Assembly (NCBI GenBank): GCA_007125545.1
Contig: SLDA01000240.1
Span: 1-50,967, forward strand
Direction of reading: 5' to 3'
DNA from: Thermoflexales bacterium
GTDB taxonomy: Bacteria > Chloroflexota > Anaerolineae > B4-G1 > SLSP01
DNA length: 50,967 nucleotides
Of this stretch, positions 2,809 through 18,845 are shown piece by piece. The position numbers and the translations under genes were made by a program. The number at the start of each line of letters is the position of its first letter. Positions within the stretch are counted from its first letter, which is position 1. The notes beneath the pieces are model-generated. The model had not been told where the DNA came from. It searched no databases and worked only from the letters and a program-made list of their open reading frames with translations.

Positions 2809-3521
2809 CTTCCCTCCACAATACGAGTTCCTGGTCGATCCCTTCGAGTGTTACGATAGTCCCGCGCCAAGGCCTCGGGACTGGCGCCGAGGTAGAGGTA
2901 GCGGAACACGAGCGTGAGCACGAGGCAAAGCTGGCGGAGAGGTCCGCGTTCGAGAAAACGACGACTGGAGGTTGTAACCCGCAACGGCAGGCGAACAACC
3001 TTGCCATGGCGGCGCAGCCGCCGCATCATCTCCACGTCTTCCATCAACGGGATCTCAGCATACCCACCTACCTGATCGAAAGTCTCCCGTCGCATGAATT
3101 GCGCCTGATCCCCATACATCGTGCGCCAGTCATAGAGAAGGGGCAGGTGATTAACAATCTGCAGAATACCACGCGCCGGCTGCAGGTTGAGCCAGAAAAC
3201 ACCACCTGCAACAGTGGGGCGGCTGAGCGCTTTGACCAGCGCCTCACGCCAGCCGAACGGGAGTTGCGAATCTCCGTGGCAGAAGAGTAGAACCTCGCCG
3301 CGCGCCGCAGCAGCACCATAGTTCAACTGCCCAGCCCGTCCAGGAAATGCGCGCAGCAGCAGCACGTCGGAGGGTATCAGGTCGGAGGTCCCGTCGCCGC
3401 TGCCGCCATCGACGACGATGATCTCGACCTGGTCGGGTCCATAGTCTCGCCGGGCTGCTTCCAGGGTCAACACAATCTGAGACGCTTCATTCAGCACCGG
3501 AATCACGACGGATACCAGCAT
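2805..3521 (-). CDS. GT2 glycosyltransferase, TIGR04283-like
   Basis: VSVVIPVLNE, VVDGGSGD, GRAGQLNYGA, LLFCHGD, YGDQAQF, PLMEDVE, VTTSSRR. Confidence 0.88.
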   Translation of the reverse strand: MLVSVVIPVLNEASQIVLTLEAARRDYGPDQVEIIVVDGGSGDGTSDLIPSDVLLLRAFPGRAGQLNYGAAAARGEVLLFCHGDSQLPFGWREALVKALSRPTVAGGVFWLNLQPARGILQIVNHLPLLYDWRTMYGDQAQFMRRETFDQVGGYAEIPLMEDVEMMRRLRRHGKVVRLPLRVTTSSRRFLERGPLRQLCLVLTLVFRYLYLGASPEALARDYRNTRRDRPGTRIVEGR

Positions 3522-13356: not shown

Positions 13357-14883
13357 TCAGATATATGATTTTGCCAATTGATGATCGATATGCACCAAGG
13401 CTCCATACAGATCGGCGAAGAGAGCGGCTTGGCTCGCGTAGATTCTAGCACGAACCGGATCCGGCTCAACCACGTATTCGTGGTGCTGGACCACGCGGGC
13501 GATGGCGTCGGCGGCGTCCGTGTAGATTTCGGTTCCGATGCCTGCCAACATCGCAGCGCCCGTAGCAGCAGCCTCCAGCGTACGGGTACGGTGAATCGGG
13601 AGACTGTAAATATCTGCTTGAAGTTGCAACCAGAGAGGATGCTGGGTCGCACCACCCGACGCGACAACCGTCTCTACCGGGATGCCCAAACTACGCACCA
13701 GGTCTAAGCCTTGACGCATCCCGAACACTACGCCCTCCATCACGGCGCGAATTAGGTGCGCGCGCGTGTGACGAATGGTCAATCCGACGAAACTGCCGCG
13801 CGCTGCAGGATCCATATGCGGCGTACGTTCGCCGGCAAGATAGGGCTGGAAGAGAAGACCCTCGCTTCCCGCCGGTACTGCAGCGGCGGCATCCGCCAAC
13901 TCGGCGTAGGGGGTGCCATCCAGCACCTGATCGCGAAGCCAACGCAGTGAAAGGCCTGCCGCAAGCATCGCCGTCTCGACGTGCCAGCGGTCCGGCAGGA
14001 CGTGGCAGAAGCTGTGCATGCGCAAGCCCGACGCATCCGGTCCAGGCCAATCGACAACCGCACGTTCCGTAGGAGCGAAGAGCTGCCCGCCCGTCCCGAG
14101 GGTCGAAGAGAGAACGCCGGGGGCCACCACACCATTGCCCAGCGCCTGCAAAGCCTGATCACTCCCACCGAAGATGATCGGAGTGCCGGCGGCAAGCCCC
14201 ATCTCGGCTGCTATATCGGGCAGTAAGCCCCCGGCAATATCTGCCGAAGGATATACCGGCGGTAACAGGTCGGGGTCCAAACCAAGTGCCCGTATCAGAG
14301 GTTGACTCCAAGCGCGAGCCGCCGGATCGAAGAGCCCCGTCGAGGCGGCGTCACTCGGCTCAGTCCCGATCTCACCTGTTAGCCGATAGCGCACATAGTC
14401 CTTGGGCAGCAGCAGCCAGCGGGTGGCTGCCGCGAGTTCGGGCATGTGAGACCGCAACCACAGCCATGTCGGCAGCATAAAACCGGTCGCCAATGGATTA
14501 CCGGTCCACGCCGCGAGCTGCTCACGACCCAGGGTTTGGGTGACGGTGGCAACCTCGGCGCTACTGCGCTGATCGGCCCAGATAATGGCAGGACGAAGGG
14601 GTTCGCCTGCCGCATTCAAGCAGACAGTACCATGCATCTGGCCCGAAAGCGCGATGCCCTGCACGGCGGCGGGATCGATGCCGGCACGTTCTCCAGCCTC
14701 GCGCACGGTAGCCACTACGGCAGTAAGCCATTGGGCGGAGTTCTGCTCCGCCCAACCGGGCCGCGGTGTGTCAACCGGATACTCGCGCGCCGCGACAGCG
14801 CGCAACTCACCGCTTGCCGTGAGCACAACAGCCTTTGTACTGGACGTACCGACATCGGCACCAATCAGAATCGGGTCATTCAT
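13357..14883 (-). CDS. xylB: Xylulokinase (FGGY family)
   Basis: IGADVGTSSTK, SGQMHG, IIWADQR, LPKDY, GGSDQ, PYLAGERTPH, AVMEGV. Confidence 0.85.
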   Translation of the reverse strand: MNDPILIGADVGTSSTKAVVLTASGELRAVAAREYPVDTPRPGWAEQNSAQWLTAVVATVREAGERAGIDPAAVQGIALSGQMHGTVCLNAAGEPLRPAIIWADQRSSAEVATVTQTLGREQLAAWTGNPLATGFMLPTWLWLRSHMPELAAATRWLLLPKDYVRYRLTGEIGTEPSDAASTGLFDPAARAWSQPLIRALGLDPDLLPPVYPSADIAGGLLPDIAAEMGLAAGTPIIFGGSDQALQALGNGVVAPGVLSSTLGTGGQLFAPTERAVVDWPGPDASGLRMHSFCHVLPDRWHVETAMLAAGLSLRWLRDQVLDGTPYAELADAAAAVPAGSEGLLFQPYLAGERTPHMDPAARGSFVGLTIRHTRAHLIRAVMEGVVFGMRQGLDLVRSLGIPVETVVASGGATQHPLWLQLQADIYSLPIHRTRTLEAAATGAAMLAGIGTEIYTDAADAIARVVQHHEYVVEPDPVRARIYASQAALFADLYGALVHIDHQLAKSYI

Positions 14884-14949: not shown

Positions 14950-16140
14950 CTAGGAACTGGCCCAGTACGCCGCTGGTTGCAGTACCACCTTCACGCAGCC
15001 ATCTTCCTTGTGCTTGAACATCTCATACGCCTGTGCGGCATCCTCCAAACTCATACGATGCGTGATGATAAACGCGGGATTGAGCCGGCCTTGCTGAATG
15101 TGCTCCAGAAGCGGGCGGAGATACTTGTGCACATGCGTTTGTCCCATCTTGAAAGTAAGGGCCTTGTTGAACGCCGCACCCATAGGGACCTTGTCGATCA
15201 CGCCCCCATACACACCCGCAAGCGAGAGGACGCCGCCCTTACGACAAGCCTGGATGGCCTCACGCAGCGCATGAGGTCTTCCCGTCTCAAGGCGCACAGC
15301 TTGTTTCACCTTATCATAGAGGCCCTCAAGACCACCGTGGCTGGCCTCCATACCTGCGGCATCGATGCAGGCATCAGGTCCCCGTCCGCCGGTAAGTTCC
15401 TTGAGCGAGGCTACCACGCTAGTTGCTTCATAGTCCAGCGTCTCAGCGCCTGCGTGTTCGCGGGCCATAGCCAGTCGTTCGGGTACAGTATCGATGCCTA
15501 TCACACGTTCAGCACCCAGGAGATAGGCACTGAGGATAGCGAACTGCCCGACTGGGCCACACCCCCAAACCGCGACCGTATCACCCGCCTTGATAGCGCA
15601 GTTTTCGGCAGCCATATATCCGGTGGGGAGCGTGTCGGTTAGAAAGATGGCCTGCTCGTCGACGACGTCCTCGGGTACCTTCATAGGGCCCACATCAGCG
15701 AAGGGAACGCGCACATATTCAGCCTGCCCGCCGGCGTAGCCGCCCATTAGGTGAGAGTAGCCATAGATCCCGGCGGGACTGTAACCATAAACAGCTTCAG
15801 CCATCCAAGCTTTTGGATTGGAGTTGTCACAGAGCGACCACATCTCGTGCCGGCAGAAGTAGCATTGGCCACACGCGATTGGAAACGGGACAACCACGCG
15901 ATCTCCAATCTCGAGATTCTGCACCTCACCGCCTACTTCGACAACCCGGCCCATAAACTCGTGGCCCAGAATGTCGCCAGGAAGCATGCTTGGAACGTAT
16001 CCATCATAGAGGTGCAGGTCGGAGCCACAGATGGACGTGAGGGTCACCTGGATGATAGCATCACGGGGATTTAGAATGCGCGGCTGCGGGACCGTTTCGA
16101 CCCGCACATCGTGAACACCGTGCCAGCATACTGCTCTCAT
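14950..16140 (-). CDS. Zn-dependent alcohol/formaldehyde dehydrogenase (FDH-like)
   Basis: ICGSDLH, GHEFMG, CGQCYFC...C, GCGPVG, GQTHV. Confidence 0.92.
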
Positions 16141-16181
16141 AGTTCACCGCTCCTTTTTTGGGTCAGATAGGAAATTCTGAG

Positions 16182-16922
16182 CTACCAGCACTCGACCTCG
16201 ACATCACTCCGGCCCGAACTCTGTCCCTCCACTGTAGCAATCTCGCCCGTTTCGAGCAGTTGTTTGGCGTGGCGCAGATACTGCTTGACGCGTTTAGCCG
16301 CGATAGAGTCAAACAATCCGGCGACCGCAGCACCGACAGCACCCCCAGGTGGATATACCTCAAACCGCAGTCTGGTCTCGACACCGCGTTCGCCGGGTGC
16401 AGGTGTGAAGGTAACAGACGCGTGGCTATCGATATCTGCATCGGGCGCCACTCGCCACACAATTCGCTCACCGGGCCGGTCCTCCACAATATCCTCATGC
16501 CATACGACCTCAGCGCCAGGAATGGGTTCGGCGATCCAACGGAACCAGCCCTCACCTTGCACCTCTACGGATTCCACAGAGTCCATAAGACGGACCAAGT
16601 TCTCGGGATTCCGGAAGAACGTGTACACTTCGTCGGCGGACTTGTTGATCGTGATCGTCTCCTCAACAACCATGGGCTGTTCAGCCGGAGACATCACCAG
16701 ACTTAATCCTTCACGCACGGGGGCATGCCCGGTTGCACTGCGATAGATCGCGTAGCCGCCGACAGCCGCTGTCGCAAGCCCCAACAAGGATCGGCGAGAG
16801 AGGCCGTACCACGCGAGTGCACCTCCGCCCACAATCGTCAACAAGCGCTCCCCAACGGTTACATCTAGATCCGACCGATCCTGACTTTCGGTGTAGCCAT
16901 TTATGTTCGCTACGTCTGACAT
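16182..16922 (-). CDS. SRPBCC (cyclase/dehydrase) protein with N-terminal membrane segment
   Basis: ERLL..GG TM hairpin then ITIN..EVY.FFRN.ENL, YPPGG, KQLLETGE. Confidence 0.85.
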   Translation of the reverse strand: MSDVANINGYTESQDRSDLDVTVGERLLTIVGGGALAWYGLSRRSLLGLATAAVGGYAIYRSATGHAPVREGLSLVMSPAEQPMVVEETITINKSADEVYTFFRNPENLVRLMDSVESVEVQGEGWFRWIAEPIPGAEVVWHEDIVEDRPGERIVWRVAPDADIDSHASVTFTPAPGERGVETRLRFEVYPPGGAVGAAVAGLFDSIAAKRVKQYLRHAKQLLETGEIATVEGQSSGRSDVEVECW

Positions 16923-17063
16923 CTCTTACCTCCCTTATTTGTGGGTGTCCACCATCATCGAGCCATGGCTCCTTCTAGCGAGTCTAGTAAGGCCCATGTT
17001 GGCAGCGGGTGGAATGAGATGGAGAGCGTTACCATCGCATTGGTAGAATTAGACACACTGACG

Positions 17064-17091
17064 TTGACATTTTCCCGATCCTTGTTACATT
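17064..17091 (+). promoter_or_regulatory. Promoter of the gltX leader (TTGACA-16-TACATT, extended TG)
   Basis: ttgaca ttttcccgatccttgt tacatt. Confidence 0.75.
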
Positions 17092-17125
17092 TTGACTATC
17101 AAGGCAAACGGAAGAACAGGTATTG

Positions 17126-17191
17126 ATGAGATCAACAGTAGTGTTCGAGCAAGAGCAGCAGCCCATCCCTCGCAACCCGCGGGACGGTTGA
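17126..17191 (+). CDS. Putative gltX attenuator leader peptide MRSTVVFEQEQQPIPRNPRDG
   Basis: 21-codon ORF between promoter and terminator; GAG CAA GAG CAG CAG run at 17147-17161; weak SD (AGGT) upstream. Confidence 0.75.
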   Translation: MRSTVVFEQEQQPIPRNPRDG

Positions 17192-17225
17192 TGCTACCTG
17201 TTTAGCTCACAATCCGAGTCCAAGC

Positions 17226-17260
17226 AGCCGGCTCCCGCAAGGGGCCGGTTTTTTTGTTTT
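17226..17260 (+). terminator. Intrinsic terminator (attenuator) in the gltX 5' leader
   Basis: agccggctcc-cgcaa-ggggccggtt followed by tttttgtttt, ending 28 nt before the gltX ATG. Confidence 0.85.
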
Positions 17261-17288
17261 CAGTCTGTACCGATGATAAGGGGATGCG

Positions 17289-18845
17289 ATGACTAGTGCA
17301 CATAGACCCGTCCGAGTTCGGATCGCGCCAAGCCCAACCGGCAATTGCCATGTCGGCACGGCGCGTGGAGCGCTGTACAACCTGTTGTTTGCACGGCAGC
17401 ACAACGGCATCTTTGTGCTGCGGATCGACGATACCGATCAGAAACGCTCGACTGAGGACTCCGAGACCGGCATCTATGCAGGACTACGCTGGTTGGGCTT
17501 GACGTGGGACGAAGGGCCGGACGTGGGCGGCCCCTACGGGCCGTACCGGCAATCCGAGCGGTTGGACCTCTACGGCGATGCGGCACGGCACCTCCTTGAG
17601 GTGGGGCGCGCTTATCGCTGCTTTTGTACGCCCGAAGAACTGGAGGCCGAGCGCCGGTCAGCACTGGCCCGCGGGCACCCCCCACGCTATAGCGGGCGCT
17701 GCCGTCACTTGACAGCGCGCAAAGTGCGAGCCAAGCTCGCGACTGGGGCTGAGCATGTCGTACGGCTGCGAATCGAGCCGAAGCTGATGGTCGTTGATGA
17801 CCTAGTCCAGGGCAAGGTTACGCAGGATGCCGCGCTTCTGGGCGATCCCGTCATCGTCAAGTCCTCTGGCATGCCGGTCTACCACTTCGCCACCGTCGTG
17901 GATGAGCATGCCATGGACATCTCGCACGTTATCCGCGGCGCCGAGCACTTGAACAACACCTTTCCACAGATTCAAATGTACGAGGCACTGGGTTACTTAC
18001 CGCCGGCTTTCGCGCACATCGGCCTTCTGCTCAATCCCGATCGCTCCAAGATCGGCAAGCGCAACGGCGCCGTCTACATCGGCGAGTTTGCAGCGCTGGG
18101 CTACCTGCCGGAAACACTGATCAACCATCTGGCATTAAGCGGATGGAGTCCCGGAACCGATGCCGAAATCTTCAGCTTTGATGAGCTCCTACACTATTTC
18201 TCGCTCGAACGTTGCAGCGCCTCCAACGCCATCTTCGACCGCGATAAGCTGCTCTGGCTCAACGGCGTCCGCATCCGCGAACTGCCGGTCAGCGAACTGA
18301 CCCGGCAGGTACGCCCCTTCCTGGTCAATGCCGGACTGCTCGCCGAGCCCGAGAGGGGCGTACGTCTGGAAAGCATCATCGCGCTGGAGCAGCAGCGAAT
18401 GAAAACGCTGAACGAGGCGCCCGAGCTACTTGGCTTCTTTTTCCACGATCCGGATCCGGTTACTGCCGCCGCACTCTTGGGCCGAGACCGCTTCACGCGC
18501 AAGCGGTCGGGCCACGCGTTGCGGGAGGGGCTAGAGTCTACGCTCCAGGCACTGGAGGCGTTGGATGCTCGAAGCTGGACGGTGATCAAGCTGTCGGAGG
18601 TGCTTGACGATCTCGTAGTCGCTCTGGGTTGGAAGCGAGGTGAGTTTTTCATGACACTGCGCATCGCCGCAAGCGGAAAACAGGCAACACCCTCACTTTA
18701 CGAGACGCTGGAGGCGCTCGGACGCCCTGCGACGCTTCGGCGCTTGAGAGCCGTTGTGGGCGCTCTGCCGGCGAGAAACGATAGGACACTGCCCAGTAAC
18801 GCTCAAGAGACGGCTTCCTTGCTACCCTCAAACCCTATGCTATAG
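17289..18845 (+). CDS. gltX: Glutamate--tRNA ligase
   Basis: RIAPSPTG, HVGT (HIGH), LRIDDTD, PYRQSER, CFC..Y...C, HVIRGAEH, KIGKR (KMSKS-like), C-terminal anticodon-binding domain. Confidence 0.93.
   Translation: MTSAHRPVRVRIAPSPTGNCHVGTARGALYNLLFARQHNGIFVLRIDDTDQKRSTEDSETGIYAGLRWLGLTWDEGPDVGGPYGPYRQSERLDLYGDAARHLLEVGRAYRCFCTPEELEAERRSALARGHPPRYSGRCRHLTARKVRAKLATGAEHVVRLRIEPKLMVVDDLVQGKVTQDAALLGDPVIVKSSGMPVYHFATVVDEHAMDISHVIRGAEHLNNTFPQIQMYEALGYLPPAFAHIGLLLNPDRSKIGKRNGAVYIGEFAALGYLPETLINHLALSGWSPGTDAEIFSFDELLHYFSLERCSASNAIFDRDKLLWLNGVRIRELPVSELTRQVRPFLVNAGLLAEPERGVRLESIIALEQQRMKTLNEAPELLGFFFHDPDPVTAAALLGRDRFTRKRSGHALREGLESTLQALEALDARSWTVIKLSEVLDDLVVALGWKRGEFFMTLRIAASGKQATPSLYETLEALGRPATLRRLRAVVGALPARNDRTLPSNAQETASLLPSNPML

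Follow-up and report, generated by a model that had tools for sequence, protein, structure and literature searches.

A putative glutamine- and glutamate-codon attenuator in the leader of a second glutamyl-tRNA synthetase gene from Chloroflexota

Why would a second glutamyl-tRNA synthetase gene be preceded by its own promoter, a reading frame of only 21 codons and a transcription terminator? The question is raised by gltX2, one of two genes for glutamyl-tRNA synthetase (GluRS) in the genome of a Thermoflexales bacterium (GCA_007125545.1), and by the leader that lies in front of it on contig SLDA01000240.1, whose 50,967 nucleotides (nt) are the stretch analysed here (the window). We consider it likely that this leader is a ribosome-mediated transcription attenuator that reads glutamine (plus glutamate) codons and controls the accessory gltX2, and we are more confident still that it is a ribosome-mediated attenuator, whatever it reads. 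The anatomy of the leader, its conservation, its conserved reading frame and its alternative pairings were all obtained computationally, apart from a contig of an RNA library that bridges the terminator.

The gltX2 leader and its relatives

The product of gltX2 matches the GluRS family TIGR00464 with 465.5 bits (cut-off 290); its best solved relative is Thermotoga maritima GluRS1 and its closest named relative belongs to an Anaerolineae genome bin. A preliminary description of this DNA took gltX2 for the GluRS gene of the genome, which had to be corrected. The other GluRS gene, gltX1, lies on a separate contig, encodes a protein 42% identical to the gltX2 product and is the copy common to all 40 relatives searched. 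The gltX2 gene occurs in 3 of the 41 related genomes searched, with orthologues among the 40 relatives only in two congeneric genomes, G002 (65% identity) and G011 (70%). By gene content, gltX2 is an accessory second GluRS copy. The features of the locus are the following, upstream ORF (uORF) standing for a short open reading frame (ORF) ahead of the gene.

17064..17091, plus strand: sigma-70-type promoter with TTGACA (17064-17069), a 16-nt spacer and TACATT (17086-17091), from a consensus scan
17092..17097, plus strand: TTGACT, the homologue of the -35 hexamer in the G002 and G011 leaders, from sequence comparison
17126..17191, plus strand: leader-peptide uORF of 21 codons plus TGA, from ORF reading, its frame kept in orthologous leaders
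17147..17161, plus strand: candidate regulatory codons GAG CAA GAG CAG CAG (E Q E Q Q), from the sequence and the aligned leaders
17154..17195, plus strand: hairpin 1:2 (anti-antiterminator), from the centroid fold and a consensus helix in 21 leaders
17179..17238, plus strand: predicted antiterminator 2:3, from a segment fold
17226..17260, plus strand: intrinsic terminator 3:4, formed by AGCCGGCUCC, the loop CGCAA and GGGGCCGGUU, then a U-tract, from a terminator scan
17278..17284, plus strand: Shine-Dalgarno sequence AAGGGGA of gltX2, from sequence reading
17289..18845, plus strand: gltX2, full-length bacterial-type glutamate--tRNA ligase of 518 aa (TIGR00464)

The promoter matches the consensus at 10 of 12 positions, and a TG precedes its -10 hexamer. 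Between 16800 and 17400, 2 promoter-like sites were observed against 0.3 expected from shuffles, and 1 terminator-like site against 0.4. Spacing, the sole basis for the estimate, would place the transcription start at about 17098 and give a 5' untranslated region (UTR) of about 27 nt. The TTGACT just downstream is too distant from any -10 sequence in the window to work as a -35 hexamer; it is probably the remnant of a promoter replacement, the new promoter lying just upstream of it.

The uORF runs from the ATG at 17126 to the TGA at 17189-17191 (translation MRSTVVFEQEQQPIPRNPRDG), with an in-frame TTG ahead of the ATG at 17123 and a weak Shine-Dalgarno sequence (AGG, 17118-17120) 5 nt before it. 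Its Glu and Gln codons, three for Gln and two for Glu, are confined to the run at 17147-17161, and the last two CAG codons of that run sit in the 5' arm of hairpin 1:2. The terminator stem (17226-17250) has 10 pairs, 7 of them G-C, and a loop of 5, followed by TTTTTGTTTT. The heptamer AGCAGCC is found both at 17157-17163 and at 17223-17229, with CGGTTGATGCT at 17185-17195. The promoter, the 21-codon uORF, its sole Glu/Gln run, the U-tailed terminator and the repeated heptamer were all confirmed where the preliminary description had located them. Folding of the 168-nt leader gave a minimum free energy (MFE) of -56.5 kcal/mol against a shuffle mean of -45.1 kcal/mol (z = -2.88; 0 of 200 shuffles equal it). 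Since the gene upstream of the leader (16182-16922) is on the minus strand and the intergenic region is divergent, the plus-strand terminator belongs to the gltX2 leader and is not the end of another gene. Judged by comparison among genomes, the arrangement exceeds chance, as homologous forms of it recur in others.

Both G002 and G011 carry a homologous leader before gltX2. Identity among the gltX2 leaders is 71-74% over the block that starts at the last Gln codons and extends to the terminator; sequence upstream of this block cannot be aligned. In G002 and G011 the uORF has the same frame and the same TGA, so that the frame is kept in all 3 orthologous leaders; it is 6 nt (two codons) longer and has a different N-terminal part. 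These two uORFs contain 4 Gln and 1 Glu codons, clustered as QQ..EQQ, and differ from each other by a Q-Q-R against R-Q-Q swap that leaves the Gln count unchanged. The middle of the gltX2 leader peptide is not conserved. The ATG of both uORFs lies 6 nt past an extended -10 box (TGTACGAT), a spacing that, as the sole basis, suggests they are leaderless and start at or near the 5' end of the transcript. A short leader ORF with a usable start is present by sequence, with the Shine-Dalgarno sequence in the window and the leaderless AUG in G002 and G011. An E/Q-containing uORF and a terminator, which the preliminary description had suggested looking for in related leaders, do recur before the gltX2 orthologues.

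The surroundings of the leader differ among these genomes. An FGGY-kinase gene directly flanks it in G002 and G011, and two extra genes intervene in the window. These two, on the minus strand at 14950-16922, separate the FGGY-type kinase gene (13357-14883) from the gltX2 leader; one ORF is like zinc alcohol dehydrogenases, the other encodes 246 aa, and both are absent at the same place in G002 and G011. Their insertion coincides with the probable promoter replacement.

A nhmmer profile built from the three gltX2 leaders matched a second place in the window's genome (G000) with an E value of 2.3e-7, which is the leader before the genes for citrate synthase (TIGR01800, 472.8 bits) and aconitase (TIGR01342, 784 bits).

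G000 contig C366, locus L138, about 3050-3330, minus strand: leader of the citrate synthase-aconitase genes, from nhmmer

BLAST located this leader in 18 further genomes of the genus. Leaving the window's own genome aside, a covariance model recovered it from 19 of 21 genomes of the genus. Weaker matches of the model, again ahead of citrate synthase, came from four other genera of the window's family and from a single genome of a second one. The leader type always stands directly upstream of a gene of the same orientation. We aligned the 3 gltX2 leaders with 18 citrate-synthase leaders (21 sequences), and they are homologous over their full length, including region 2 of the predicted switch and the terminator. 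Each of these 21 leaders has an ATG-initiated ORF that crosses the conserved CAG in the frame that makes it a Gln codon; the corresponding counts for the other two frames are 0 and 3 of 21. The N-terminal parts of the uORFs are diverse in both sequence and length, and conservation upstream of the core is poor, so the open frame is not the mere inheritance of one sequence. The earlier proposal of a leader-peptide attenuator with Gln/Glu sensor codons before a GluRS gene is supported by this frame, which is kept in 3 of 3 orthologous and 21 of 21 homologous leaders.

The citrate-synthase uORFs share the core R-Q-P-x-K-P-Q-P. Aligned to it, as is the E Q E Q Q run of the window, the gltX2 leader of G011 reads R-Q-Q-R-E-Q-Q, and the codon changes from the core to the gltX2 leader are CCU to CAG twice (Pro to Gln) and AAG to GAG (Lys to Glu). 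On this alignment, the gltX2 leader is a copy of the leader of a metabolic operon, retuned codon by codon. Almost all residues of the citrate-synthase core are amino acids derived from 2-oxoglutarate; that leader may itself be a multivalent attenuator of 2-oxoglutarate supply.

The covariance model also matched loci L193-L196 (genus g8), mainly through shared terminator sequence. At about 1501-1630 these have a conserved 16-codon uORF (core R-L-P-N/S-P-P-A/V-P-E) followed by a terminator, and in L195 and L196 a metallophosphoesterase-like ORF lies downstream.

Alternative helices and the predicted switch

In silico, the leader is predicted to form three mutually exclusive pairings, 1:2, 2:3 and 3:4; the candidate regulatory codons fall at region 1, and the stop codon falls at region 2. 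In hairpin 1:2 the segments AGCA, CAGCC, UCCC and CG pair with CG, GGGA, GGUUG and UGCU, and the uORF stop codon is inside the 3' arm, within GGUUGA of region 2. The RNAalifold consensus of this helix has a 5' arm GC..CAGCC..CC that holds the conserved CAG and a 3' arm GG..GGUUG..GC that holds the stop. The core of the antiterminator is GCGGGA (17179-17184) paired with UCCCGC (17233-17238), stacked on GCU (17193-17195) paired with GGC (17230-17232). Of the terminator 5' arm (17226-17235) it occupies the upper half, 17230-17235, and it also takes in part of the loop. The preliminary description had proposed the same three-way switch with helix 2:3 made through the AGCAGCC heptamer; the switch is retained, but the heptamer contributes only a minor part of helix 2:3, whose core is the pairing just given.

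The energies of the separate segments 1:2, 2:3 and 3:4 are -26.7, -21.7 and -18.5 kcal/mol in the window, -33.2, -17.9 and -16.7 kcal/mol in G002, and -37.5, -21.9 and -18.6 kcal/mol in G011. When the stretch from region 2 to the terminator loop is folded, the antiterminator is predicted in 21 of 21 leaders (-17.8 to -28.9 kcal/mol). Compensatory changes are found in the terminator at alignment pair 108:134 (GC in 11 leaders, AU in 7 and GU in 3). Leaders differ in the top of the terminator, and region 2a covaries with these differences: duplexes of region 2a with the terminator top average -11.2 kcal/mol for cognate and -9.7 kcal/mol for non-cognate combinations. None of 10000 permutations reached the cognate value, or 3 of 10000 when 19 unique combinations were used; relatedness of the leaders inflates this test but does not create the complementarity.

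Transcription would begin near 17098 and, with coupling assumed, a ribosome would translate the 21-codon uORF while RNA polymerase transcribes the leader. A ribosome that reaches the UGA would sit on region 2, the terminator (17226-17260) would form and transcription would stop before gltX2. If the uORF were not translated, region 2 would be locked in hairpin 1:2 and the terminator would also form. A ribosome stalled at the Glu/Gln codons (17147-17161) would instead cover region 1, the likeliest limiting species being charged tRNA-Gln and a second input charged tRNA-Glu. The freed region 2 (GCGGGA...GCU) would pair with the upper terminator 5' arm and part of the loop, blocking the terminator, and the polymerase would read through into gltX2. 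We infer the stalling at these codons, the supply of Gln-tRNA and Glu-tRNA as the signal and the consequent rise in read-through; Gln and Glu are taken as the signal because codon identity tracks the downstream gene.

Signal of the leader and competing explanations

This tracking is seen in sister leaders ahead of other genes. A genome-wide search for short ORFs in which 3 or more of 6 residues are Gln returned 217, of which 4 are followed by a terminator; 3 of these 4 are the gltX2, citrate-synthase and aspS leaders. The last of these, and further leaders of similar build, are the following.

G000 contig C624, locus L200, 2652-3042, minus strand: aspS-gatC-gatA leader, from the sequence
Loci L228, L229, L230, L243, L253 and L255: glnA leaders with Gln or Asn/Gln runs
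G000 contig C124, locus L139, about 3240-3500: lysW-like leader

In the window's genome, a leader with promoter, uORF and terminator precedes a second aspS (for aspartyl-tRNA synthetase, AspRS), gatC and gatA, and its uORF contains QANQNQQNNN. Asn/Gln-rich uORFs stand before aspS-gatCA in 17 of 18 matched relatives, with a conserved C-terminal motif like NPGVRLWEGR. Together with the asparaginyl-tRNA synthetase (AsnRS) of the genome, aspS-gatCA presumably resembles the tRNA-dependent asparagine synthesis of Thermus and Deinococcus. A second terminator-like hairpin follows the first in the aspS leader. The first 48 nt of the aspS-leader query (L200, about 2995-3042) are a dispersed repeat, present at no fewer than 10 other places in G000 with 80-92% identity among copies.

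Among upstream regions of type I glutamine synthetase genes (glnA) in related genera, a terminator hairpin was found in 8 of 27. Six of these 8, all from the window's family (six genera), have a uORF that carries a run of Gln or of Asn/Gln and ends 54-64 nt ahead of the terminator, and two of them have six and seven consecutive Gln. In the two other families of the order no such glnA leader was present among the upstream regions examined. A DNA search with a Gln-run glnA leader returned no homologue in 30 relatives of its source genome (G439); a protein-based search later found others. The lysW-like leader has a promoter, a 26-codon uORF with K-R-R-A-R and a terminator; the lysW-like gene is cut by the contig end and is hence below the family cut-off. 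Leader-peptide attenuation appears from these loci to be a common device in the lineage, with codon runs that fit the genes. The alternative helices, the covarying antiterminator and these sister leaders before glnA and aspS-gatCA all favour the attenuator that had been proposed from the gltX2 leader alone.

Several points weigh against a Gln/Glu attenuator, the first of them concerning its folding. At equilibrium the terminator forms in every state of a masking ribosome, so the switch must be kinetic, as is that of the trp attenuator. Because equilibrium masking cannot discriminate among the states, we replaced it by folding of the nascent transcript, with the terminator 3' arm left out and 28 nt masked as the ribosome. 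Sequestration of the terminator 5' arm then averages 0.68 with a ribosome at the Gln codons, against 0.40 with none and 0.40 with one at the stop; the increase is seen in 20 of 21 leaders. The effect is clean in G002 and G011, where the antiterminator becomes the MFE structure only when the A-site is at about codons 5-16. The masked fold that the preliminary description had in mind was uninformative at equilibrium and showed this increase in the nascent transcript. In the window's own leader the contrast is weak (0.57 without a ribosome, 0.6-0.7 with one at the Gln codons); its longer 5' UTR provides competing pairings. A stall anywhere in the first two thirds or so of the uORF (about 10 codons) has the same predicted effect, so that folding does not single out Gln.

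Others concern the frame and the distribution. A conserved TAA in the core shuts one alternative frame in all citrate-synthase leaders, and the frame counts of 21, 0 and 3 out of 21 are therefore not fully independent. The conserved CAG codons are base-paired in helix 1:2 with invariant third positions, so conservation alone cannot separate coding from pairing, and RNA pairing by itself could explain the conserved CAG. The known gltX2 leaders are three, two of them from close relatives, and the next closest orthologue (locus L031, 64% identity) has no leader. A protein scan with GluRS2 (the gltX2 product), one genome per species, kept 80 loci, with one close orthologue (L031) and no further leader. 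When 401 genomes of the class were scanned for the region-2 pattern, 5 other matches turned up, all in coding sequence (a reversed-pattern control gave 1). The same kind of scan of a metagenome collection gave 19 matches, none with the 18-nt spacing or a terminator, and the matches of both scans were judged to be chance.

The remaining points concern the signal itself. Glu codons are few, 1-2 per gltX2 leader against 3-4 for Gln, which looks like a Gln sensor with a Glu component more than a symmetric one; of the dual Glu/Gln sensor proposed earlier, the presence of both codons stands, and their weight is probably unequal. GluRS activates glutamate and not Gln, a glutaminyl-tRNA synthetase (GlnRS) is encoded in the genome, which leaves the link from Gln codons to a GluRS gene indirect, and GluRS2 keeps an Arg at the position of Thermus thermophilus Arg358. 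Lastly, the organism is an uncultured genome bin, for which coupling of transcription and translation is assumed.

The role of GluRS2 bears on how the Gln codons are to be understood. The genome encodes a bona fide GlnRS (TIGR00440, 719 bits), GatB and AsnRS, and its tRNA-Gln genes have the anticodons CUG and UUG and its tRNA-Glu genes CUC and UUC. GlnRS, GatB and a second GluRS copy, the genes suggested earlier as worth looking for, were thus all found. By this content it is a genome of the two-GluRS, GlnRS-plus, GatCAB-plus type, which a passage of a 2014 survey (PMC3927822) reports for a few Proteobacteria. The earlier statement that a non-discriminating GluRS charges both tRNAs was not established for this enzyme, with a GlnRS present and the Arg at the position of Arg358, which GluRS1 has likewise. 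Passages of the same survey term Arg358 specific to discriminating GluRS, note that the rule failed in Helicobacter, another phylum, and state that specificity in two-GluRS genomes is not guessable without experiment. In G011 the gltX2 orthologue is split across two frames near residue 400 with its leader intact (locus L003). A frameshift, a pseudogene and an assembly error are candidate causes of this split.

At odds of roughly one to four, GluRS2 might feed tRNA-Gln to GatCAB and back up GlnRS, the Gln codons then being directly cognate. A wider proposal, which we consider possible but rather doubtful, would make gltX2 one arm of a network of amide-codon attenuators, with GluRS2 mischarging tRNA-Gln for GatCAB as a backup for GlnRS. 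Its arms would be glnA with Gln runs, citrate synthase-aconitase with Gln/Pro/Lys/Arg, the second AspRS plus GatCA with Asn/Gln, and the second GluRS with Gln/Glu. In such a network, low charged tRNA-Gln or tRNA-Asn would turn on tRNA-dependent Gln-tRNA and Asn-tRNA synthesis and boost the flow of carbon and nitrogen to glutamine; the citrate synthase-aconitase arm would supply 2-oxoglutarate, and the gltX2 leader would have come from the citrate-synthase leader by recoding of Pro and Lys to Gln and Glu. The remaining reading is that gltX2 would be a spare enzyme for tRNA-Glu whose leader kept ancestral Gln codons and gained Glu codons.

The leader could also be a uORF-dependent attenuator with a signal other than Gln-tRNA or Glu-tRNA, such as translation stress, slow Pro-rich stretches or an arrest like those of TnaC and SpeFL, the latter through a conserved C-terminal R-D/G-G-stop. 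Predicted antitermination, which would follow a stall at some 10 different codons and not at Gln alone, is compatible with it, and so are the peptide-like motif of the citrate-synthase leaders, which conserve more Pro than Gln, the RDG, RGG or close variant with which the gltX2 uORFs and 11 of 18 citrate-synthase uORFs end at the same TGA, and the C-terminal motif kept by the aspS leaders. However, RNA pairing explains those C-terminal codons, which are part of region 2 and show no third-position variation, the middle of the gltX2 peptide is unconserved, and the runs follow the gene (Gln with glnA, Asn with aspS-gatCA, Pro to Gln and Lys to Glu with gltX2). We regard such a signal as unlikely.

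Less likely again is a non-coding RNA switch, in which a protein (e.g. GluRS2), a tRNA or a metabolite would shift the balance between 1:2 and 2:3, and the open frame would be a by-product of C- and G-rich pairing. Aminoacyl-tRNA synthetase genes are often under RNA elements such as T-boxes and the thrS operator, the best conserved blocks of the leader are paired ones with invariant third positions, and the fold is steadier than shuffles (z -2.88), all of which would suit it. On the other hand, the ATG-initiated ORF stays in one frame in 21 of 21 leaders (0 and 3 for the others) despite divergent upstream sequence, in G002 and G011 the ATG coincides with the predicted start of the transcript, and the leader has no conserved hairpin loop able to mimic an anticodon arm. 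No T-box or riboswitch matched it at E values up to 10, and T-boxes were found elsewhere in the genome.

The idea that the promoter-terminator unit forms a small RNA gene of its own, or else a constitutive transcriptional insulator, with gltX2 expressed from elsewhere, draws on the strong promoter and strong terminator of the unit and on passages of the rnTrpL papers that describe terminated attenuator RNAs acting in trans in other bacteria, but it is very improbable given that the consensus scan found no second promoter-like site between the terminator and the gltX2 start, that only 28 nt separate the U-tract from the gltX2 ATG, that this leader type always directly precedes a gene of the same orientation, and that an RNA-library contig bridges the terminator into gltX2. 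This contig (run X4, from an alkaline-sediment metagenome; 1197 nt, covering 17153-18349, depth 30) extends far more than 31 letters to each side of the terminator; it shows neither transcript ends nor strand, and DNA carry-over is possible. Run X4 has no contig on 16700-17152, and no weight is given to that gap.

Known attenuators and further observations

The classical leader-peptide attenuators (trpL, hisL, pheL, thrL, leuL and ilvL) belong to Proteobacteria. The gltX2 leader is like them in its short leader ORF with candidate regulatory codons in or near region 1, in a stop codon that would let the ribosome mask region 2, in the predicted exclusive helices 1:2, 2:3 and 3:4, and in the intrinsic terminator before the first structural gene. 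It differs from them in its codons (Gln plus Glu), its phylum, its target, which is a synthetase paralogue, and in having no Rfam leader family. Leader-peptide attenuators of amino-acid operons are described in general terms in passages of PMC1183508, and a passage of PMC2965389 gives this kind of attenuation as shown only in Proteobacteria and Actinobacteria, histidine leaders being predicted in Firmicutes.

Synthetase genes under a leader of the relevant amino acid provide another likeness. In E. coli, pheST is under the pheM leader. For bacilli, passages of PMC2965389 describe a duplicated hisS paralogue that carries a histidine leader peptide, the other copy keeping a T-box. In hisS as here, it is the paralogue or accessory copy that carries the leader; the codons of pheM and hisS are those of the charged amino acid (Phe, His), whereas the gltX2 leader has mostly Gln codons on a GluRS gene. 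The auxiliary gene trpRS1 of Streptomyces coelicolor, for an antibiotic-resistant tryptophanyl-tRNA synthetase, reportedly has a leader peptide with Trp codons (Vecchione and Sello, J Bacteriol 2010). By that account it is also a dispensable second synthetase gene that is silent under a ribosome-mediated attenuator and induced when cognate charging fails; gltX2 shows no sign of a resistance role, and differs by its codon specificity and by a leader from a citrate-synthase operon. In mycobacteria, leaderless short ORFs encoding poly-cysteine reportedly attenuate in response to Cys (Canestrari et al. 2020). They resemble the G002 and G011 uORFs, with the ATG at the predicted transcript start, in being leaderless short ORFs with a single-residue run, and differ in the amino acid, in the 5' UTR of about 27 nt of the window copy and in the intrinsic terminator that is evident here.

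T-box leaders on gltX and other synthetase genes of Firmicutes, described in passages of PMC2494555, also attenuate transcription of synthetase genes by tRNA charging through a terminator and antiterminator. They bind uncharged tRNA directly with no translation, and their model does not match the gltX2 leader: RF00230 has no match at E values up to 10 in 16900-17400, and 6 matches elsewhere in the genome. The UGGN of T-boxes pairs with the tRNA 3' end; the gltX2 leader has no UGG for such pairing. No Rfam 15 family, known amino-acid leaders and glutamine riboswitches included, matched anywhere in the window at gathering thresholds, and the matches in the leader are at chance level (E values of 1.1 or worse). 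A match of the Rfam Chloroflexi-1 motif to 17083-17186 on the minus strand was considered and rejected: 16 of its first 17 positions fit the consensus, the score is 14.6 bits against a gathering threshold of 80 (E value 3.6), the block is unconserved in G002 and G011, and we judged it a chance match.

The preliminary description knew of no Glu/Gln leader-peptide attenuator for gltX, and we also found none; in the full-text literature covered there is no description of a leader attenuator with Gln, Glu or Asn codons, nor of a leader-peptide attenuator on gltX, glnA, citrate synthase or aspS-gatCA. This result is provisional, as that literature holds few subscription journals and no supplements, and related predictions could exist in the attenuator lists of the PMC2965389 and PMC4833913 supplements, which lie outside it. 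If confirmed, the gltX2 locus and its sister leaders would add a new phylum, and the amide amino acids, to the known range of the mechanism, and the leader alignment would document a regulatory leader copied from a metabolic operon and recoded for a new gene. The purpose of a second GluRS and of GatCAB beside GlnRS and AsnRS is a long-standing question, on which the leader codons may indicate when such a gene is needed. The main interest of the locus is in the surrounding family of leaders and in what it says on spare GluRS, AspRS and GatCAB genes. These leaders would also be compact, sequence-defined sensors of Gln-tRNA and Asn-tRNA charging, with possible use as reporters.

Contigs from other DNA data sets cover part of the locus and give weak hints on its variation. 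Those of three studies show no differences in 17124-17267, and differ at 17268, 17270, 17279, 17297 and 17299. In a soda-lake population (run X2; one contig, depth 4.9), a T to A change at 17123 turns TTGATG into ATGATG and gives the uORF an extra Met codon.

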